Below, in pieces: positions 16,864 to 57,531 of a DNA stretch of 64,000 nucleotides; position 1 is the stretch's first letter; each line of letters starts with the position of its first letter. The notes beneath the pieces were generated by a model, which was not told the origin of the DNA, searched no databases, and worked only from the letters and a program-made list of their open reading frames with translations. The translations under genes and the position numbers were made by a program. The stretch is from a virus (Duplodnaviria; Heunggongvirae; Uroviricota; Caudoviricetes), in IMG/VR virus record IMGVR_UViG_3300027608_000011; one strand, given 5' to 3'.

Positions 16864-17657
16864 TAGAAGACAAACAGATAGGGGCACGACCTTTAGAATT
16901 TTTATGGAAACGAGTTGGCCTTTTTAGTGTGCCGATTACAATACTATGGATGTTCTTTAATCCCAGTGACTGGCCATGGCTATTAGCAGGAATTATATTT
17001 GGCAAGTTTTTTGTTGGCATGATAGGTAAAAATATTGCTTTCCATCGTTACATCTGTCATAGAAGTTTTAAAACTAGCAAAGCTAAACATTACTTTTTAC
17101 TGTTTGCAAATTCATTTAGTACCAACAGTCCGTTAACTGCGGCCACAGTACATAGATACCACCATAAACACAGTGATACTAATAAGGACCCACATAGCCC
17201 TAAGATATATGGTTTTTGGAATTCATTGTTTTGGAGAGAACGAGTAGTACAGAATAAAAAAGCAATGCAGTTGCCGGTTGACTTAATGAGAGATCCTTCA
17301 CTTATGTGGTTACATAACAATTGCATTTTAGTGTATGGCGTGTACGCCTTGTTATGTCTGTTAATTAGTTGGAAGTTAATGGTATTTTGTTTGTTCTTTG
17401 CTACAGGATTAACTGCAATAAACAACAGTATTATTTTTATTGCATTAGTACATATGAAGATTTGGGGAAGTTACAGAAACTTTGACACAGCAGACCAGAG
17501 TTATAATTCTAAATTTTTGGAAATACTAAGTCCCGGAGAAGGCTATCATAATAATCATCATATGTATCCGGGCAAGTACAACATGGCAATTATGCCAGGC
17601 GAATTTGATTTAGCAGGATGGATTGTCGATAAGGTATTTGTTAATGAAATTAAATGA
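16860..17657 (+). CDS. delta-9 fatty-acid desaturase paralog 2 of 4
   Basis: HRYICH, HRYHHKHSDTNKDPHSP, GEGYHNNHHMYP; start overlaps previous stop. Confidence 0.75.
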   Translation: MIEDKQIGARPLEFLWKRVGLFSVPITILWMFFNPSDWPWLLAGIIFGKFFVGMIGKNIAFHRYICHRSFKTSKAKHYFLLFANSFSTNSPLTAATVHRYHHKHSDTNKDPHSPKIYGFWNSLFWRERVVQNKKAMQLPVDLMRDPSLMWLHNNCILVYGVYALLCLLISWKLMVFCLFFATGLTAINNSIIFIALVHMKIWGSYRNFDTADQSYNSKFLEILSPGEGYHNNHHMYPGKYNMAIMPGEFDLAGWIVDKVFVNEIK

Positions 17658-18468
17658 TATTAATAAAACTGCATTACTAATCAGTACACTTCGTATATCA
17701 AGTATCATAAGTATACCTTTTTGTTTTCTATGGGTTTGTTTTAACCCCAGTGACTGGCCTTGGCTATTGGGCGGCATTATTTGGGTTCGTCTATATGTGC
17801 AACCATTGGTTCGTAGCATGATGTTACATAGATATTTTAGTCATCGTAGTTTTAAAGTTAGTGACCGGGTGCATAAATTTTTCTGTATATCGTCTATATT
17901 TGCGGCTGTGAGTCCAGTTACTGCGGCCGCAATACATAGATTCCACCATAAATTCAGCGACACACCTAAGGACCCACATAGCCCATTAAATGGTATATGG
18001 AGTAGTTTAAGTTATAATCGAAAATTAGTATTAGGATTTAACTACAGTGGGTATATGGATAAAGCAACAGTACCATTTGATTTACTACGTGACAGGTCGG
18101 CGAGGTTTATACATAACAATCTAGCCGTGTTATGCTTAGGTACAATGTTATTATGTGTGTTAGTGTCGTGGAAATTACTTATATTTGGATATGTATTTGG
18201 TGTAGGCCTTGCTCTTGCTGAAACCGGAATCCTTAACATTGTATATGGCCATAAAAAAGCATGGGGTGGATATAGAAATTTTGATACGACTGATAACAGT
18301 TACAATACAAAATGGATCAATTGGTGGTTCGGAGACGGATTTCATAATAATCATCATGCTAAACCGGGCGCTTGGAATCAAAGTACAAAACCAGATGAAA
18401 TAGATTATGTTGCGTATGCAATAAAATATATATTTGCAGAAAAGGATAGCTTACGTGAAATACATTAA
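17623..18468 (+). CDS. delta-9 fatty-acid desaturase paralog 3 of 4
   Basis: HRYFSH, HRFHHKFSDTPKDPHSP, GDGFHNNHHAKP. Confidence 0.7.
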   Translation: MSIRYLLMKLNDINKTALLISTLRISSIISIPFCFLWVCFNPSDWPWLLGGIIWVRLYVQPLVRSMMLHRYFSHRSFKVSDRVHKFFCISSIFAAVSPVTAAAIHRFHHKFSDTPKDPHSPLNGIWSSLSYNRKLVLGFNYSGYMDKATVPFDLLRDRSARFIHNNLAVLCLGTMLLCVLVSWKLLIFGYVFGVGLALAETGILNIVYGHKKAWGGYRNFDTTDNSYNTKWINWWFGDGFHNNHHAKPGAWNQSTKPDEIDYVAYAIKYIFAEKDSLREIH

Positions 18469-23560: not shown

Positions 23561-24718
23561 GTGGGCAGAATGAATACGCAGGCAATAACACGCAATACCC
23601 TAGCAGGCATTACCACAAGTCTTGCTATGGTGCCAGAGGTTGTGGCCTTTGCACTATTAGCACACGTTAATCCCTTAGTAGGTTTGTATGCCGCAGTTAT
23701 ACTAGGACTAGTCACTGCTTTGTTTGGAGGCAGACCTGGCTTGATAAGTGGAGGTGCTGGTAGCTTGGCTGTGGTCAGTGTGGCACTGGTTGTAACACAT
23801 GGAGTAGAATACTTGTTTGCCTGTATTGTGCTTATGGGTGCGATACAGTTTGCGTTTGGAGCGTTCAAGTTAGGCAAGCTAATCAAGCTGGTATCGCCCA
23901 GTGTAATGACAGGCTTTGTGAATGGATTGGCTTTGGTAATTTTTATGGCACAGTTTCATGAAATTCCTGCCCAAGGATTTGCCTTGTACTCTATGTTGGG
24001 ATTAATCGGCGTAACTATTCTCGGAGTACTAATTGCTCCACGGATTACTCGGCATATACCGGGAAGTTTGTTTGGTATTGTGCTTGTGACTGCTGTGGTA
24101 TATGCGTTTGGCATCACAACAAAAACAGTAGGAGACATAGCTCATATTAGTGGAGCCATGCCCTCATTCCATTTACCTAACGTGCCATTCACATTAGAAA
24201 CATTATGGATCGTGCTACCCTACAGCGTGATACTGGCCGCGGTTGGCCTAATTGAAACACTACTAACTGCCAACTTAGTGGACAAGACCATTGGCGGAAC
24301 AAATCAGCCCAACAGGGAAAGCATGGCTCAGGGTGCAGGTAATGTGTTGACAGGCCTGTTTGGTGGCATGGGCGGTTGCGCTATGATTGGGCAAACTGTT
24401 ATCAACTTGGAAGCAGGTGGACATCACCGTTTGGCAGGCGTAGTGGAAGCATTGGCCATCCTAGCTTATATTGTGTTTGCTAGTTTCATAATTGAATCAA
24501 TACCTATTGCGGCCCTGATTGGTGTCATGTGTGTAGTGTGCTATCACACATTTGATTGGAGCAGTTTATCTTTTAAAGGTAAGCCAAGACAAGACATTGC
24601 TGTGATGCTGACAGTTACCGTGGCCACAGTTGTATTCAATTTAGCCTATGCCGTTTTACTTGGAGTAGTATTGACCAGCATGTTATACTACTGGAAACAT
24701 ATCGCAAGCAAAACATGA
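23561..24718 (+). CDS. SulP-family-like anion permease transmembrane domain (sulfate/bicarbonate-transporter-like, no STAS domain)
   Basis: 385 aa polytopic membrane protein; N-terminal LAGITTSLAMVPEVVAFALLA resembles the SulP signature. Confidence 0.5.
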   Translation: MGRMNTQAITRNTLAGITTSLAMVPEVVAFALLAHVNPLVGLYAAVILGLVTALFGGRPGLISGGAGSLAVVSVALVVTHGVEYLFACIVLMGAIQFAFGAFKLGKLIKLVSPSVMTGFVNGLALVIFMAQFHEIPAQGFALYSMLGLIGVTILGVLIAPRITRHIPGSLFGIVLVTAVVYAFGITTKTVGDIAHISGAMPSFHLPNVPFTLETLWIVLPYSVILAAVGLIETLLTANLVDKTIGGTNQPNRESMAQGAGNVLTGLFGGMGGCAMIGQTVINLEAGGHHRLAGVVEALAILAYIVFASFIIESIPIAALIGVMCVVCYHTFDWSSLSFKGKPRQDIAVMLTVTVATVVFNLAYAVLLGVVLTSMLYYWKHIASKT

Positions 24719-28070: not shown

Positions 28071-30062
28071 ATGTTTAAAAAAAGTTTAATTGCACTTACT
28101 ATAGGAACGATGTTCAGCCCTGTTTACTCCCAAACAGTAGAACAAACAATGAATGTAAATGCCTATAGCCTAGTAGGTGTGCAAGACGCATGGGCTAGAG
28201 GCTTTACTGGTAAAGGTCAACGAATTGGTATTCTAGACACCGGCGTTGATTTGAAGAATAAAGATTTAGGATCAAAAGTAGTTTCAGCAAGTGGACTATA
28301 CTCTGGTATATATGCTGATGATATTCGAGGCCACGGAACTTATATGGCTAGTATTGCGGCAGGCGCAAAAAATAATGTTGGTATTGTAGGTGTGGCGTAT
28401 GATGCTAATATTATATCTTACAAAGCAGGAATTGGTCAAAATATCTACGAGAATGGCGTCCAAAAAGGCTTGAAGTATTTGGCCGACAGAAGTGCTGGTG
28501 TAATTAATATGAGCTTGGGTACTAGTATACAGTCTTATAATTTTAAGAATTATTATACTGACTTGGGCAATGGTGTATATAAAAGTAAATTTGGTAACGA
28601 TGCATATAGGACCATGAACACCACGTTGCCATATATGGCCTATGCTACACAAAAGGGCAGTATCTTAGTTATAGCCGCGGGCAATGATGGGAACCCAGTA
28701 CCGTCTGCACCCGCAAACTTTGTTACATTAACTGGCGGCGACGGCAAATTGATATTAGGTGGCCGAGCATTGGTTGTGGGCGCAGTTAATGACTTGGGTC
28801 AGATTGCTCCATGGAGCAATAAGGCTGGTAGTATTTGTAACCAATTTATTAACAGTGTATGTAAAGACACTTATAAAATCAGTGACTTTTATATTCTAGC
28901 TCCAGGAGCAAGTATTAGTGCTTCCCAAAGTGGTAGCATACAGGCAGTAAATAGAGTAAGTGGTACCAGTCCTGCAACTGCGGTCGTGTCGGGCGGAGTA
29001 GCAATACTTAAACAAGCATGGCCTACGTTAAAGCCAGAACAAATTGTTCAACTGTTAACAACAACTGCAAACAAAAACATACCCGGATACGATCCTAAGA
29101 TATATGGACAAGGTATTATGGATCTTAATAAAGCAACTATGCCTCAGGGCACACTGGCATTGTCAAGTAAAACAGGCTTGGCCCAAAGCAATACCCAGTT
29201 GACTACTGGTATGGTTACTGGAGCATTGGGTGCATTAACTACCACTAGCATTATGAATAATGCCCAGTTTGTTGATAATTATGGAAGAAACTATGCTTTA
29301 GATATGAGCAAAGTAATGGTTAATAATCTTACGAACTTTAATCAGAATTTTACTTACATGGGTCTTAGTACTGCACAGGCCAATTACGGCGGCTTTAAAG
29401 CAGGATCAGTCGGTTACGAATTCTCGCAAAGCTATGATGGTTTTGCTACACGACAAAAATTAGATACTAAGTTTGGATGGGTTGGTGTGGAAGCAGGATC
29501 AGTTACTGAGAGCAACGGTGTTTTGGGCTCACAGGGCGCAGGTGCATTTAATCCAGGTACTGCATCAACTTCGTTCTATGGTGTTAGTGCTGGATATAAT
29601 TTACAGGATCAAACTGAATTATACGGAGGCATGTCTTTTGGTAAAACAAATGCAAAAGCCTCAGCTGACGGATTAATCTCAGGTTACAGTAATATTCAAA
29701 CAATGAGTTACCATATGGGATACAAAACTAATTTGAATTTTGTAAATAAAGATACCTTGGATTTTAAATTTACTGTTCTTCCGTTTGTTACTAAAGGACA
29801 TGCCACAGTTAGTGCTACTACAGGTTACACTTATACAGAAGACAGTGACGGCAATACTTCAGCAACACCTATTAATACTACAGATAACGTAAGTCTTAAA
29901 ACATCGTATAGACAAATGGCAACAACTATGAGCTATAGCGCACCGCTTAGATTGTTTGCCAAAGATGATCGTGCAATTATTAGTTTTAGCACGATATTTG
30001 ATAATCAAGGCTCTAAATCAGTTACCCCAGTGGCATACGTTGGATATCAATCACGTTTTTAA
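28071..30062 (+). CDS. secreted subtilisin-like (S8) serine protease with C-terminal beta-barrel-like domain ending in Phe
   Basis: signal peptide; catalytic blocks GILDTGVD, HGTYMASIAAG, SGTSPATAVVSG; terminal ...YQSRF. Confidence 0.8.
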   Translation: MFKKSLIALTIGTMFSPVYSQTVEQTMNVNAYSLVGVQDAWARGFTGKGQRIGILDTGVDLKNKDLGSKVVSASGLYSGIYADDIRGHGTYMASIAAGAKNNVGIVGVAYDANIISYKAGIGQNIYENGVQKGLKYLADRSAGVINMSLGTSIQSYNFKNYYTDLGNGVYKSKFGNDAYRTMNTTLPYMAYATQKGSILVIAAGNDGNPVPSAPANFVTLTGGDGKLILGGRALVVGAVNDLGQIAPWSNKAGSICNQFINSVCKDTYKISDFYILAPGASISASQSGSIQAVNRVSGTSPATAVVSGGVAILKQAWPTLKPEQIVQLLTTTANKNIPGYDPKIYGQGIMDLNKATMPQGTLALSSKTGLAQSNTQLTTGMVTGALGALTTTSIMNNAQFVDNYGRNYALDMSKVMVNNLTNFNQNFTYMGLSTAQANYGGFKAGSVGYEFSQSYDGFATRQKLDTKFGWVGVEAGSVTESNGVLGSQGAGAFNPGTASTSFYGVSAGYNLQDQTELYGGMSFGKTNAKASADGLISGYSNIQTMSYHMGYKTNLNFVNKDTLDFKFTVLPFVTKGHATVSATTGYTYTEDSDGNTSATPINTTDNVSLKTSYRQMATTMSYSAPLRLFAKDDRAIISFSTIFDNQGSKSVTPVAYVGYQSRF

Positions 30063-40938: not shown

Positions 40939-41198
40939 CAGGTTATAAATATAAACGTGAAAAAGCCAAGGATATAGACGAGGCCGAACAAGAGAATCAA
41001 ATGAACGAAATTGTAACAGACACTGATCAGGCACTAGCGGACTTCTTTGCCAAGGGAGGCAAAGTGCAGTACATTGCCACAGGCGTTAGTGGAAATCCCG
41101 ATGGTATTAGTTATTCTGCATGGGGTGCTGGCCGTAAAAAATTGCCAGCGATGCCAGCAACGTTGGATCCAGCTGAATCTTCTGAAGATGAATCTTAA
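40935..41198 (+). CDS. small acidic protein (87 aa)
   Basis: ORF. Confidence 0.45.
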   Translation: MTGYKYKREKAKDIDEAEQENQMNEIVTDTDQALADFFAKGGKVQYIATGVSGNPDGISYSAWGAGRKKLPAMPATLDPAESSEDES

Positions 41199-41949
41199 AA
41201 GTAAACTGGCATTAATTTTACTGTTGGTAACAGTAAATTCCCATGCCTTTCTGTTACCAACAAAAGTCGAAGTTAAAGATAGCAGGCTTGGAAAAATAGT
41301 CGAAGTCCCGGTTGAAACTTGGACTAACTGGCGGCCCGGGCCAACTATCATATTGGCACATACTTGTGCAGGTATAATACGTCCTATGGACACTGATTGG
41401 GCCAATACTATTAAGAGTTGGGGTTACAATGTTGTTATACCAGACAGTTTTAATCCACGCGGCGTCAAGGAAACATGTTTACTTCCAAGAACAGTAAGTA
41501 TGACGCAACGAAATGAAGATATCTCAAGTGTGGCAGAATGGGTATGGAAGCAAAGTTGGCACAAAGGACCAATTGGTCTTATTGGTTTTAGTAATGGTGG
41601 TTGGTTAGTATTGGAAGCTAGTAACAGGCCATTGACCAATAAAATTGCGGCAATGGTTGCGTATTATCCATGGTGTGATGTTAAGTTTCATGGTAAACCT
41701 AAAATCCCCGTACAGATACATATAGGCAAACAAGACTCATGGACTCCTGCTGAACAATGCGAACCATTAGGTTCTGTCGTGGAACTTAATATATATGAAA
41801 ATGCTTACCATAGTTTTGACAGGCATGCACCTAGAAGAGTAAGGCCCGGGCACGGTGAAAAACTTCATGTGCTAGAGTATAATCCAATGGCAACTAAATT
41901 GGCGGCCGAGAGGACTAAGGACTTTTTCCAGCATTACTTAAAGGATTAA
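41188..41949 (+). CDS. secreted alpha/beta hydrolase (dienelactone-hydrolase/esterase-like)
   Basis: start moved to MNLKSKLAL signal peptide; nucleophile elbow GFSNGG; downstream Asp/His candidates. Confidence 0.6.
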   Translation: MNLKSKLALILLLVTVNSHAFLLPTKVEVKDSRLGKIVEVPVETWTNWRPGPTIILAHTCAGIIRPMDTDWANTIKSWGYNVVIPDSFNPRGVKETCLLPRTVSMTQRNEDISSVAEWVWKQSWHKGPIGLIGFSNGGWLVLEASNRPLTNKIAAMVAYYPWCDVKFHGKPKIPVQIHIGKQDSWTPAEQCEPLGSVVELNIYENAYHSFDRHAPRRVRPGHGEKLHVLEYNPMATKLAAERTKDFFQHYLKD

Positions 41950-47656: not shown

Positions 47657-47912
47657 TTTCAATATACGCAACCCATGGAGCGACCGTTTTGAAAACTTAT
47701 GGTGCCGTGGGTATGCTACACCATTTGATAACAAATTTATTGAACTAGAAGTTACTAGAGACTTCACTCTAGTATCATTTATGTTCGATTGGACTGTGCG
47801 GCAAAGCCATGCAGGTTTAAACATTGAACTAGGCCTATTTGGCTACTGTGTTCACTTTAACTTCTACGACAATCGGCATTGGAATTACGAAAAGAAAGCG
47901 TGGGAAATATAA
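47643..47912 (+). CDS. hypothetical protein (89 aa)
   Basis: ORF. Confidence 0.4.
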   Translation: MLSLNFNIRNPWSDRFENLWCRGYATPFDNKFIELEVTRDFTLVSFMFDWTVRQSHAGLNIELGLFGYCVHFNFYDNRHWNYEKKAWEI

Positions 47913-48997
47913 ATTTGTCTACTCTTGATTTATTTTCTCCTTGTAGCATTGGCTCAGTCAACTTAGATCATCGTGTGGTTATGAGTTCAATGACCCGACT
48001 TCGATGTGAAAACTATTTGCCCACAGATGATGTAGTAGCACATTATAGACAACGCAGTAGTCGTGGCGGATTAATCTTAACAGAATCTATAGCAGTTAAT
48101 CATGAAGGTGTTGCGTGGCCTCTTATGTCTGGCATATGGGATCTTGCACAAGTCAGCGCATGGAAGAATGTTACCAGAGCAGTACATTGTCAAGACGGAA
48201 AGATATTTGCACAATTATTTCATGCTGGTAGGATTTCTCACAGTTCAATATCTCCCGGGAATGTGCCGCCAAGCGCACCCAGCGCAATAAGGCCAGCTGG
48301 TTTAACTATAAATGCCTACGGACAAAAAGTACCGTATGAAATACCAACAGAAATGACATTGCCGGTAATTAATAGAACAATTAAATCATATGTTCAGGCC
48401 GCTAAAAATTGTGTTGCCGCAGAATTTGATGGCATTGAATTGCATTGTGGAGATGGGTTTTTACTGCAACAATTTATGAATAGTAAAACAAATTGCCGCA
48501 CTGACAAATATGGAGATCCGCTAGAGTTGATTAAAGAAATAATAACAAATATAAAGTCTGAAGTTAACATACCAATTGGAATTAAAATTACACCATTTAG
48601 TGTGCAGAATGATATTACACACGACAGCATTGAGTTGTATGAAAACTTATTAAGTAGTATCGATGGCATGATAAGCTATATAACAGTTGCAGATCCTAGA
48701 ATTAACGACGACAAAGACTTGGCCCGTGCCAATTTAGAACGCACAGTATCAATTGATGTGCCACTGCAATCAGTTATTGATATACTTAGGTCTGACTTTC
48801 ATGGCGTTATTATTGGTGTTGGTGGCTTTCAACCCGAATCAATTATTGAAACTAATGTAGACTTGATTGCATTTGGTAGATGGTTCACTTCAAACCCTTC
48901 ATTACCTGACAGGATCAAGAATAAAATGCCATTAACTATGTATGATACTTCAACATTTTATCGAGGCGGCAAGAATGGGTACACGACTTTTATGTAA
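47879..48997 (+). CDS. Old Yellow Enzyme family NAD(P)H:flavin oxidoreductase (start uncertain, possibly TTG at 47915)
   Basis: N-terminal LFSP..IGSVNLDHRVVMSSMTR, HAGR, and HCGDGFLLQQFMNS blocks typical of OYE/NemA. Confidence 0.75.
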   Translation: MELRKESVGNINLSTLDLFSPCSIGSVNLDHRVVMSSMTRLRCENYLPTDDVVAHYRQRSSRGGLILTESIAVNHEGVAWPLMSGIWDLAQVSAWKNVTRAVHCQDGKIFAQLFHAGRISHSSISPGNVPPSAPSAIRPAGLTINAYGQKVPYEIPTEMTLPVINRTIKSYVQAAKNCVAAEFDGIELHCGDGFLLQQFMNSKTNCRTDKYGDPLELIKEIITNIKSEVNIPIGIKITPFSVQNDITHDSIELYENLLSSIDGMISYITVADPRINDDKDLARANLERTVSIDVPLQSVIDILRSDFHGVIIGVGGFQPESIIETNVDLIAFGRWFTSNPSLPDRIKNKMPLTMYDTSTFYRGGKNGYTTFM

Positions 48998-55231: not shown

Positions 55232-55420
55232 TATGCTTAGAATAATCCCAGGACACAAAACCACTGATCAAGCCAAAACTAGATCAAACGTAGTTGACAT
55301 TAATAGTCGTATTAAGAAAAGTAACATCAAAGTCATTGAAAACAAAAAGACTGATGTACCTAAAAATAAGACTAAGTGAACACTAGATAAATAAAACTAC
55401 ATGTTAATGGAGGCACACAA

Positions 55421-55825
55421 ATGCTATCAAGAATCTCTACCTTTCTAAAAGGTGTTATAAGCGGTAAGACTGACGTTGCAGAGCAACCCCCTGTTCAAAC
55501 CAAAGAAGTACCATACAAAGTTGAACCTACTCCCGTAGTACAGCATGATATTATGACCGGAATGACTTATGTTGCGCCAGCCCTATCAGCGGTCGCACCA
55601 GTAGTTGATACAGCAGATATTGCCATTGCTCAACTTCCAGACCCGGTGGCTGTACCTGCAAAGAAACAGCCAGCACCTAAAAAAGCACCAGCGAAAAAAG
55701 CTCCAGCGATGAAGACGCCGACTAAAGTACAAACATTTACTAAAGCTAAACCTGTAAAAGTAAAACCTACAGGGGCACTAACCAAGCCTCCGGTAAAAAA
55801 AAGAGCTCCGAAGCCGTCCCAATAA
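55421..55825 (+). CDS. histone H1-like Lys/Ala/Pro-rich DNA-binding protein (zero-frame product)
   Basis: 134 aa; C-terminal PAKKQPAPKKAPAKKAPAMKTPTK repeats. Confidence 0.6.
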   Translation: MLSRISTFLKGVISGKTDVAEQPPVQTKEVPYKVEPTPVVQHDIMTGMTYVAPALSAVAPVVDTADIAIAQLPDPVAVPAKKQPAPKKAPAKKAPAMKTPTKVQTFTKAKPVKVKPTGALTKPPVKKRAPKPSQ

Positions 55826-55977
55826 AAGTTAACCCGATAGTAATTAAAGCTCGAGTTGATCCTTCAACATTAGAAGGCAAAACAAAAGCTGAATTACTAT
55901 CGTTGGCCAAGTCTAAAGGTATTAGGGTTAATTCTCGTATGGGAAAACCTGCATTGATTAAACGTATAATTGGATGA
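55795..55977 (+). other. candidate -1 programmed frameshift site A_AAA_AAA plus -1-frame extension encoding an HeH/Rho-N-like motif
   Basis: slippery heptamer in the correct X_XXY_YYZ phase at 55795-55801; the -1 frame is open from 55750 to 55977, has no start codon before a late ATG, and encodes TKAELLSLAKSKGIRVNSRMGKPALIKRI. Confidence 0.5.
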
Positions 55978-56300
55978 TTACTTTAACCCAAACTGCAAGC
56001 AAGAAGATTAAACAGAATCTAGACAAGCGCGGTAAGGGCGTAGGAATTCGTATAGGTGTAAGGACCACAGGTTGTAGTGGTTTGGCGTATACTATAGAAT
56101 ACGTAGACGAATACACAGCCGAAGTAGGCGTAACCAATTTTGGACAACCAGACTTTGTAGTATTAGTTGATGCAAAAAGTTTAGCTTACTTAAATGGATT
56201 AACAATGGATTGGGTTCGAAATGGCCTCAATGAAGGATTTGATTTTGTCAATCCTAACGAACGAGATCGTTGTGGATGTGGTGAAAGTTTTAGAGTTTGA
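55974..56300 (+). CDS. IscA/HesB-family iron-sulfur cluster insertion protein
   Basis: 108 aa; RTTGCSGLAY and C-terminal CGCGESF motifs. Confidence 0.8.
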   Translation: MITLTQTASKKIKQNLDKRGKGVGIRIGVRTTGCSGLAYTIEYVDEYTAEVGVTNFGQPDFVVLVDAKSLAYLNGLTMDWVRNGLNEGFDFVNPNERDRCGCGESFRV

Positions 56301-56325
56301 CAAATGCAAAAACAGATAGTATAAT
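56297..56325 (+). promoter_or_regulatory. sigma70-type promoter TTGACA-17-TATAAT
   Basis: consensus hexamers. Confidence 0.5.
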
Positions 56326-56331
56326 ACACAG

Positions 56332-56781
56332 ATGAAACAAATTGACCTAAACAAATATAAAGATTTCGTAGAAGAAGTTACTAGCAAGCCTAGCAATGAC
56401 CTTACTACATTTATGAATCGTCTGGACCAACTAGACGGAAATTATGAAGTTTTTCAAGAAGGACTGTCGGCCGGTCAAGGTCCTGATATTAATGTTCCTT
56501 TGTTACTTACTGCATGTATGGGCTTGGCGGCAGAAGCTGGTGAATTTATTGAACTACCAAAGAAGATTATTTTCCAAGGCAAGCCATTAGACGAGGCGTC
56601 CGTTTTTCATATGAAACGTGAACTGGGTGATGTCATGTGGTATTGGATCAATGCTTGTAGAGCGTTAAACTTAGACCCCAATGATGTTATTGCAGAAAAT
56701 GTAAAGAAACTCGAAGCACGTTATCCGGGTGGTAGCTTTGATGCTTACCACAGTGAAAATCGTAAAGCGGGTGACTTATAA
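56332..56781 (+). CDS. mazG: MazG-like nucleoside triphosphate pyrophosphohydrolase
   Basis: EAGEFIE and ELGDVMWYWINACRALNLDPNDVIAENVKKLEARYP blocks. Confidence 0.8.
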   Translation: MKQIDLNKYKDFVEEVTSKPSNDLTTFMNRLDQLDGNYEVFQEGLSAGQGPDINVPLLLTACMGLAAEAGEFIELPKKIIFQGKPLDEASVFHMKRELGDVMWYWINACRALNLDPNDVIAENVKKLEARYPGGSFDAYHSENRKAGDL

Positions 56782-57026
56782 TGTTTGGAATGCACTTTGA
56801 CTCTGAAGGTTTATCCATTGAAGAACTTATGGCCAAAGAGATCGAGTTCCGAAAAAAATTAGCAACTGCACATAATGCAGGAGCAAATGCCAATATAATT
56901 TCTCAATTTGAAATGATCATCGAAGACGTTAAATTAGCAATGCAAGAAAAATTTATGATAGAAAAATTCAATAAAGAACAAACTGGGAAAAAGGACAATT
57001 TTGATGACAGTCTCAGCATTGGTTAA
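56781..57026 (+). CDS. hypothetical protein (81 aa)
   Basis: ORF. Confidence 0.4.
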   Translation: MFGMHFDSEGLSIEELMAKEIEFRKKLATAHNAGANANIISQFEMIIEDVKLAMQEKFMIEKFNKEQTGKKDNFDDSLSIG

Positions 57027-57531
57027 AGCAGATAGTGTTGGTAGAGTTACTATTGGTTCTAATGAACTATTTGAATTAATCTATCAGGACAATTACAGGC
57101 TACTCAGTATTACTCCCGACACTGGCATTCTTAAGTTTCGTGATTTATGTAAAGAATACGATGTAAACTTTAACTATAAATTAAAAGATACAAGTACAAT
57201 GTCAGAGCAAGAGTACAAAGAATATTGTGTATCTACGTGGAGTATGCCTGACAGTTATAATAACATAGATCTAGATAAGTATTTTGCTGATAAAATAACT
57301 ACATTAGAACAAGCAGAACGTGTTAGTTTAGAATTGGCAATGTTTGAAGAACGAGGATTACAGATTGTTTTACGTTTCATAATCTACTTGGTAGATACTA
57401 TGCGTGAACATAATATAGTATGGGGTGTTGGCCGCGGCAGTAGTATTGCTAGTTACTGTCTGTATCTAACAGGCTTACATAAAATAGATAGTATTAAATA
57501 TCAATTAGATATTAAGGAGTTTTTAAAATGA
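57001..57531 (+). CDS. hypothetical protein (176 aa)
   Basis: ORF. Confidence 0.45.
   Translation: MMTVSALVKADSVGRVTIGSNELFELIYQDNYRLLSITPDTGILKFRDLCKEYDVNFNYKLKDTSTMSEQEYKEYCVSTWSMPDSYNNIDLDKYFADKITTLEQAERVSLELAMFEERGLQIVLRFIIYLVDTMREHNIVWGVGRGSSIASYCLYLTGLHKIDSIKYQLDIKEFLK

Follow-up and report, generated by a model that had tools for sequence, protein, structure and literature searches.

A conserved run of eight adenines as a probable recoding site in the gene of a small basic Caudoviricetes protein

In the 64,000-nt stretch of the Caudoviricetes virus record IMGVR_UViG_3300027608_000011 that was analysed here (the window, to whose plus strand all coordinates refer), a short Lys/Ala/Pro-rich open reading frame (ORF) stops soon after a run of eight adenines (A8), while the -1 frame continues past that stop up to the next gene. 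This raises the question of whether the locus holds a truncated gene, a single gene interrupted by a homopolymer error, or a site at which a change of frame yields two proteins from one gene. According to a preliminary description of the locus, either a programmed frameshift produces two isoforms or a single fused gene is hidden by a homopolymer indel. The comparison of related loci described below points to a poly-A recoding site that is probably maintained, with a short and a long protein arising by slipping on A8. The elements of the gene are as follows:

55409..55413, plus strand: Shine-Dalgarno (SD) sequence GGAGG, 7 nt 5' of the ATG at 55421 and the strongest SD among 17 inspected gene starts
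55421..55825, plus strand: zero-frame ORF for the predicted short isoform of 134 aa, from ATG 55421 to TAA 55823-55825
55795..55802, plus strand: A8 run, the putative shift site, within the zero-frame codons GTA AAA AAA AGA
55823..55825, plus strand: zero-frame stop TAA, 8 codons (A-site to A-site) past the A-site codon of the slip site
55801..55977, plus strand: -1-frame extension of 58 codons followed by TGA (55975-55977), reading KSSEAVPIKVNPIVIKARVDPSTLEGKTKAELLSLAKSKGIRVNSRMGKPALIKRIIG up to the stop

The zero-frame product ends in PPVKKRAPKPSQ, i.e. in VKKRAPKPSQ. The heptamer A_AAA_AAA at 55795-55801 stands in X_XXY_YYZ phase relative to the zero frame, as previously described, and is embedded in a full run of A8. 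Its A-site codon AAA (55799-55801) is followed by seven sense codons and then by the stop as the eighth codon, in agreement with the earlier account, and the position of this TAA is kept in every A8 haplotype that reaches that far (4/4 distinct extension haplotypes). The -1 frame is open from 55750 onward. That it is open and lacks an early ATG was stated correctly in the preliminary description; the extension comprises 58 codons plus TGA from 55801, and its sole ATG lies 12 codons before the end. A start codon belonging to the extension itself was considered as well and ruled out, as the ORF listing for the -1 frame contains no ORF of at least 30 aa beginning with ATG, GTG or TTG. The TGA that ends the extension and the ATG of the following gene share the sequence ATGA (55974-55977), an overlap that had also been noted. 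Conceptually, residues 1-127 joined to the extension give a long isoform of 185 aa (...PPVKK-KSSEAV...GKPALIKRIIG), for which a trans-frame peptide spanning the junction (VKKKSSEAVPIK) and a junction peptide ending in PPVKKKSSEAVPIK are predicted; the corresponding C-terminal peptide of the short form is RAPKPSQ.

To identify relatives, the conceptual 185-aa fused protein was searched in 5.8 billion protein clusters. The search returned two groups, namely (a) seven short proteins of 118-134 aa and (b) seven single-ORF proteins of 138-154 aa. Six of the seven short proteins end in VKKRAPKP[S/A/G]Q and show the split architecture of the window, one of them being identical to its product. At least 17 contigs, taken from JGI, ENA and Logan assemblies of different samples, encode this identical 134-aa protein (P0001); a diverged short product (P0007) was found on 24 contigs or more, and each of five further short variants was traced to contigs. 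In total, about 45 related split-clade contigs were compared, with 87-100 % nucleotide identity around the gene, and 26 loci were fetched. At the contig level, A8 in identical phase was found in 25 of the 26 loci and A7 in one. This exception (L019; Logan SRR077378, positions 2330-2336) is one contig from a single old run, which carries a +1-frame tail and is the source of the seventh short protein (P0002), ending in VKKEPRSRPNKS. The A7 is the only non-3n indel of this contig against the window over 2.6 kb and may be either real or an error; accession searches in the literature gave nothing on the provenance of the contig.

These data bear directly on the explanation that the split is a sequencing or assembly error and that the true sequence is A9 in a plain single ORF. 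Homopolymer miscalls are common and a fused ORF does exist in relatives, but A8 is present in at least 40 contigs that were assembled independently with different pipelines from different samples and that include diverged haplotypes, so that this explanation is hardly credible. Because of this recurrence in independent assemblies and diverged haplotypes, the split is not a sequencing artefact; it is real and conserved. For functional slippage, a shared ORF arrangement in two or more homologues that are not identical has been proposed as a criterion by Baranov et al. 2005 (PMC1088944), and here the split organisation was found in seven distinct short products and, together with A8, in four distinct A8 extension haplotypes, with L019 and its A7 as a fifth haplotype. 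Beyond these contigs, no match to known phages was obtained in 50,697 GenBank phage records, whether by megablast of the 3.5-kb region or by tblastn of the fused protein. IMG/VR contained fused-clade relatives only, and an exact-pattern scan for a window-type junction with A7-A10 was empty. A profile search of 1.84 billion representatives for additional independent split lineages found none, and the family is small.

The single-ORF proteins of group (b) show from which state the split gene derives. They run through the junction as ...PKKK[A/S]EAVKV, followed by IVIKAKVDPASLEGKTKAELL and GKAALVKRIVGQ up to the stop, and the conceptual shifted product of the window aligns to them without a break. 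At the homologous spot, all ten distinct DNA haplotypes of this fused clade, which is about 74 % identical to the window at the nucleotide level, carry A9 phased as NCA AAA AAA AAG, and one A added to the run of the window gives V-K-K-K-S-S-E-A-V. More distant relatives are single ORFs as well (L033/P0016 with 112 aa; P0018-P0022 with 81-135 aa) and share the architecture of N-terminal motif, basic tract and C-terminal module; the junction of L033 has no A-run. The proposed comparison of orthologues thus gives one ORF in the sister clade and the distant relatives and two frames in the window-type relatives. Since A9 stands at this place in the sister clade and the relatives are single ORFs, the lineage of the window carries, as judged from these alignments, a genuine 1-nt deletion in the Lys-codon run (A9 to A8), with the fused gene as the ancestral state. 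The homopolymer indel suggested earlier is therefore correct in an evolutionary sense and incorrect as a read error. A separate idea, that A9 in the fused clade is itself a selected slip site, found no significant support: the run is invariant in ten haplotypes, yet 7 of the 11 other invariant Lys codons are likewise invariant at the nucleotide level.

An A9 version of the window-type gene was found neither among the 5.8 billion protein clusters nor in IMG/VR. A reversion from A8 to A9 would be easy yet is unseen, which suggests that A8 is kept, and the missing A9 version speaks for an advantage of the split state as such. The retention of A8 may thereby indicate that the short form, or a certain isoform ratio, is needed. 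The same observation speaks to phase variation at the DNA level, in which replication slippage would toggle the run between A8 and A9 and thus switch the C-terminal domain off and on. Homopolymers are known hot spots of replication slippage (PMC3711429), one contig has A7 and the sister clade has A9. However, the A8-clade contigs other than L019 (about 45 from many samples) all have an A8 consensus, A9 is not seen on a window-type background in the two collections, and the two run lengths, A9 and A8, are each fixed in a clade of their own, with about 26 % divergence between the clades. Such toggling is therefore considered very improbable.

If the segment behind the zero-frame stop were no longer translated, it should decay. 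Selection was tested on five distinct extension haplotypes with 13 variable sites past the zero-frame stop. Eleven of these sites are synonymous in the -1 frame and two are nonsynonymous (D/E and S/L; binomial P=1.2e-5). Within the A8 clade, the pairwise ratio of nonsynonymous to synonymous divergence (pN/pS) is 0.00-0.08 in the -1 frame and reaches about 1 or more in either of the others. The extension is free of indels and stops across the haplotypes, and the ATGA overlap is retained. Judged by these substitutions, the -1-frame segment is under strong purifying selection in the split clade and, by that sign, still translated; with 11 of 13 changes synonymous in this frame, it is not a decaying pseudogene.

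This pattern is difficult to reconcile with a tolerated truncation, in which only the 134-aa protein matters, the C-terminal module is lost and the downstream 148 nt are a relic. Such a truncation would fit the short zero-frame tail of conserved length, the two of four variable sites in the 8-codon overlap zone that are synonymous in the zero frame and nonsynonymous in the -1 frame, and the failure to find a stimulator. A relic would nevertheless gather stops, indels and nonsynonymous changes, where 11 synonymous versus 2 nonsynonymous changes, a pN/pS of at most 0.08 and no indels were seen. The ATGA overlap is moreover kept across lineages whose neighbouring gene has a synonymous divergence (pS) of up to 0.38, and genes are packed so densely in this region that a non-coding gap of 148 nt would be out of the ordinary. 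The truncation is accordingly rated as improbable.

Between the A8 sub-lineages, pS is 0.09 for the N-terminus and 0.16 for the extension compared to 0.38 for the adjacent IscA-like gene (Fisher P=0.027 for extension versus IscA-like gene). RNA-level constraint, codon bias and recombination are possible causes of the lower pS in the split gene. The Ala/Pro/Lys-rich middle of the gene (55587-55715) is an indel hot spot with many in-frame indels of 3-23 nt between haplotypes, and both ends of the gene are conserved.

Taken from these comparisons, the course of events was probably as follows. An ancestral single ORF would have encoded an N-terminal motif, a basic tract rich in Lys, Ala and Pro and, at the C-terminus, a nucleic-acid-binding module of the helix-extended-helix (HeH) type, and its junctional A9 (AAA AAA AAG) would have become A8 in the lineage of the window. 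Standard decoding would now reach the stop 8 codons later and give the 134-aa protein without the HeH module, and a -1 change of frame on A8 would restore the 185-aa full-length protein, the A-run itself being apparently the whole signal. We infer that both isoforms are produced, and in substance the programmed frameshift of the preliminary description is retained, given a split that is reproducible across assemblies and diverged haplotypes and a -1 frame under strong purifying selection. By one route, RNA polymerase would add one A in some transcripts (programmed transcriptional realignment, PTR); by the other, two tRNA-Lys would slip in tandem on A_AAA_AAA. Because both would give the identical 185-aa protein, the sequence cannot decide between them. 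Transcriptional realignment has about an even chance of being the main route, marginally better than that of ribosomal slippage, which is a tentative but serious candidate; both may contribute, and the small remainder falls to other explanations.

Several findings favour the polymerase. There are no RNA stimulators at the site, and runs of A8 or T8 are avoided on both strands throughout the window, with one seen (55795-55802) versus 13.3 +/- 5.5 in dinucleotide-preserving shuffles; the avoidance of long A/T runs is regarded as a signature of slippage-prone systems (PMC1088944). PTR sites are typically homopolymeric A/T runs of at least 8 nt at the frame transition (PMC3711429), and A8 reaches this length. 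The A7 variant, if real, would also fit this route better. For bare poly-A cassettes, 10 % has been measured for A7, 40 % for A9 and 63 % for A11 (PMC3711429), and interpolation between published values makes a share of 10-40 % long form plausible for A8.

For a purely ribosomal event, i.e. a dnaX-type -1 programmed ribosomal frameshift (PRF) by a tandem tRNA-Lys slip at 55795-55801, the evidence is divided, and this possibility is held to be somewhat less than even. The heptamer is perfectly phased in all A8 loci, -1 PRF on the heptamer A_AAA_AAA has been proven in an IS cluster (PMC4066793), and AAA-AAA in pDEST17 frameshifts at the ribosome with mRNA free of extra A's (PMC1851650). The strong SD suggests a heavy ribosome load, and the spacing of 8 codons from A-site to stop lies within the window of 8-10 codons in which frameshifting of a trailing ribosome is increased (PMC6815119), so that the stimulus might be a collision with the terminating ribosome instead of an RNA structure. 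However, the phase comes from the A9 ancestor and gives no evidence of selection, the spacing of 8 codons is not improbable by chance, the stop is UAA and not the slow UGA of the collision experiments, and the avoidance of A8/T8 on both strands points to slippage at the level of the polymerase.

The usual stimulators are missing as well. Upstream of the run, ACCAAGCCTCCGGT contains no GGAG, AGGA or GAGG that could act as an internal SD about 10 nt from the heptamer, and AGGGG, the closest G-rich element, has its end about 22 nt upstream. Folding of 60-100 nt up- and downstream gave no stimulatory stem-loop or pseudoknot about 5-9 nt past the heptamer; next to the run there is only a 3-bp hairpin, 3-6 nt past it, with a z-score of -0.6 and without conservation. 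The search for a suitably spaced hairpin or pseudoknot that had been recommended thus came out negative, and no Rfam frameshift element was found at the locus. A strong hairpin is present farther downstream:

55836..55901, plus strand: stable imperfect hairpin in the HeH-coding extension, outer stem of 10 bp (GAUAGUAAUU/AAUUACUAUC)

The 100-nt fold has -22.6 kcal/mol (z -4.3), with about -21 kcal/mol for the hairpin. It begins 34 nt past the heptamer and 10 nt past the zero-frame stop and is therefore too distant to be a canonical stimulator, and it can also be folded, more weakly, in the unsplit clade: its stability is -19.5 to -22 kcal/mol in the A8 clade compared to -10 to -16.6 kcal/mol in the A9 clade (5-10 kcal/mol stronger in A8). 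Changes in it are one-sided and mostly wobble-preserving, and none is compensatory. As a conserved structure, the hairpin was rejected, with a core foldable in both clades, no compensatory changes and an uninformative shuffle control (355/500).

A more specific form of the ribosomal route, a collision-stimulated and structure-free -1 frameshift, appears unlikely. Ribosome traffic from the strong SD would queue behind a ribosome terminating at the UAA 8 codons downstream, the terminating ribosome would abut the hairpin starting 10 nt past the stop, and the trailing ribosome would slip by -1; frameshifted ribosomes would then feed the SD-less IscA-like gene via ATGA. If this were true, the isoform ratio would depend on one slippery run, as would the dose of the Fe-S assembly gene, and the sister clade with A9 and without the IscA-like gene would be a natural 'unswitched' control.

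Irrespective of the route, some points weigh against a maintained recoding site. With A8, the run is at the short end of the documented bacterial transcriptional slippage sites. The canonical stimulators, i.e. an SD-like element, a spaced hairpin and an Rfam element, are absent. The selection test is small with its five haplotypes and 13 variable sites, an invariant A9 among the fused genes has no significance by itself in view of the other Lys codons, and the A7 of L019 cannot be repaired by a -1 shift.

What the two products would differ by is a small folded module. In the short form, the N-terminal motif MLSRISTFLKGVISGKT (MLS[RK]IS.FLKG.ISGKT) is conserved, a VPYKVEP motif also occurs in the distant relatives, and residues 78-134 consist of K/A/P/T to 75 % with a net charge of +17. 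The 134-aa product has no Pfam match at E<=1. The earlier label 'histone-H1-like' is not upheld: the resemblance to H1 is one of composition only, and homology of the histone H1/H5 or Hc1 type was not found. The module of the extension is located as follows:

55861..55971, plus strand: HeH/Rho-N/SAP/LEM-like module, extension residues 21-57, from AlphaFold2 (AF2) and Foldseek

The AF2 model of the extension has helices at 29-38 and 49-57 joined by a loop, with a predicted local distance difference test (pLDDT) score of 83-90 over residues 21-57. The best Foldseek matches in the PDB are Rho N-terminal domains with a root-mean-square deviation of 1.0-1.3 A over 33-37 residues and a probability of 0.87-0.94, followed by the FAN1 SAP domain, the T4 endonuclease VII C-terminal domain and the emerin LEM domain; the E-values are about 1, the domain being tiny. 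At the sequence level, the extension reaches 15.4 bits (E 0.019) with Pfam Rho_N (PF07498), below the cut-off of 24.9, only two of nine family members match Rho_N even at E<1, and PHROGs gave weak matches to the C-terminal modules of several PHROGs. The HeH/Rho-N motif named in the preliminary description is thus supported at the level of the predicted fold and lies below the sequence thresholds. The protein is small, basic and probably DNA-binding.

The gene that follows the extension may be linked to the frame change:

55974..56300, plus strand: IscA/HesB-like Fe-S biogenesis gene of 108 aa, whose ATG overlaps the TGA of the extension

It has only distant phage matches among the GenBank phage records. 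In a comparison that covered the window and the loci L001, L028 and L034-L043, it occurs in the A8 clade alone; at the A9-clade loci, MazG directly follows the HeH gene, and the gain of the IscA-like gene and the change from A9 to A8 co-occur. Since this gene lacks an SD, no promoter lies between it and the split gene, and its ATG overlaps the stop of the extension, coupling of its translation to ribosomes in the -1 frame is plausible. These ribosomes would end at the TGA over its ATG, and slippage would then probably set its translation.

The elements of this arrangement have precedents in other systems. In Shigella flexneri spa13 (and mxiE), transcriptional slippage on a homopolymer in a short ORF likewise gives a minority product with a C-terminal extension, and in spa13/spa32 this extension reaches into the beginning of the following gene and affects how that gene is expressed (PMC5009743). 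The Shigella genes differ in protein family and are located on a bacterial plasmid and not in a phage, and the phage case is known from its sequence alone. In Citrobacter rodentium tssM1, a poly-A run also interrupts a gene that is a single ORF in homologues and leads, by transcriptional frameshifting, to two length variants, both of which are needed, as is their ratio (PMC4256274). The run is A11 there compared to A8 here, the families are unrelated, and a need for both isoforms is suggested here by the retention of A8. The magnesium chelatase cluster from GeneTack shows a conserved -1 transition on bare A-runs and provided the 10 %, 40 % and 63 % measured in E. coli (PMC3711429), but consists of cellular genes of another family and function. 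In phages, the tail-assembly chaperones G/GT are a known case of conserved recoding with a short major and an extended minor product in a fixed ratio (PMC5009743). They differ in gene, function and slippery sequences and belong to the tail module, whereas the gene described here lies in a neighbourhood of replication and nucleotide metabolism.

The comparison with dnaX tau/gamma requires more care. Both cases have an A-run in Lys codons and, here as a prediction, two products sharing the N-terminus (PMC3711429; PMC5009743). E. coli dnaX uses -1 PRF at A_AAA_AAG, Thermus dnaX transcriptional slippage on A9, and two-ORF dnaX genes have A7-A10 (PMC3711429; PMC5009743), so that for dnaX, too, related genes have one or two ORFs and slippage can be ribosomal or transcriptional. 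In E. coli and Thermus, however, the shift truncates the product, while here it would extend it as in the two-ORF dnaX genes; E. coli dnaX has an internal SD and a hairpin 6 nt downstream, both absent here, and the proteins are not homologous. Because these two defining E. coli features fail, the phage site is not dnaX-like in the strict sense, and with the opposite polarity to E. coli dnaX this earlier label could not be established.

A phage precedent for a slippage-dependent HeH extension was not found in the literature searched. The gene family is new for recoding, and the comparative evidence supports the case well; the kind of recoding is known and no new principle is involved. For genome annotation this means that gene callers report a hypothetical protein of 134 aa and 148 nt of 'non-coding' sequence where the evidence speaks for two isoforms of a probable DNA-binding protein that differ by an HeH module. 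The gene would add a non-structural case, beyond the tail chaperones and capsid genes, to the few phage genes with conserved recoding. The A9 clade with one ORF and the A8 clade with two frames form a natural comparison for the question of why a slippage-dependent ratio is preferred. In addition, a short cassette without obvious stimulators located 8 codons before a stop is convenient for separating the effects of polymerase, ribosome and collision.

The split gene is part of a block with conserved order, consisting of an Rv2179c-like exonuclease, PTPS (QueD-like), Vut_1 (YhhQ-like), three small ORFs, the split gene, the IscA-like gene where present, MazG, a small ORF and a PolIII-alpha fragment. 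Directly upstream of the split gene, at 55233-55379, lies a 48-aa basic ORF (beginning with MLRIIPGHKTTDQAK) that is syntenic in both clades and in L033. A perfect sigma-70 consensus promoter (TTGACA, 17 nt, TATAAT; 12/12) was found at 56297-56325, 6 nt before the MazG-like ATG at 56332, and would give a leaderless or near-leaderless MazG mRNA. For the 176-aa ORF at 57001-57531, which begins with TTG, the match is confined to the NTPase part of DNA polymerase III alpha (PF07733). This piece is kept as a separate short gene (175 aa) in both clades, which suggests that the polymerase is encoded in pieces.

The window also contains 22 tRNA genes between 505 and 20387 (Glu x2, Asp, Val x2, Trp, Phe, Ile-tat, Gln, Arg x5, Leu x3, Gly, Ala, Met, Thr, Pro and Ser), with no tRNA-Lys among them. 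The Lys codons of the slip site are presumably read by a host tRNA-Lys unless one is encoded beyond the window. Finally, there are many genes of auxiliary metabolic type for a phage between 4065 and 48997, among them the following:

5816-7006: radical SAM protein
17623-18468: fatty-acid desaturase
23561-24718: sulfate permease family protein
28071-30062: subtilase
41047-41949: dienelactone hydrolase
47879-48997: Old-Yellow-Enzyme-type flavin oxidoreductase

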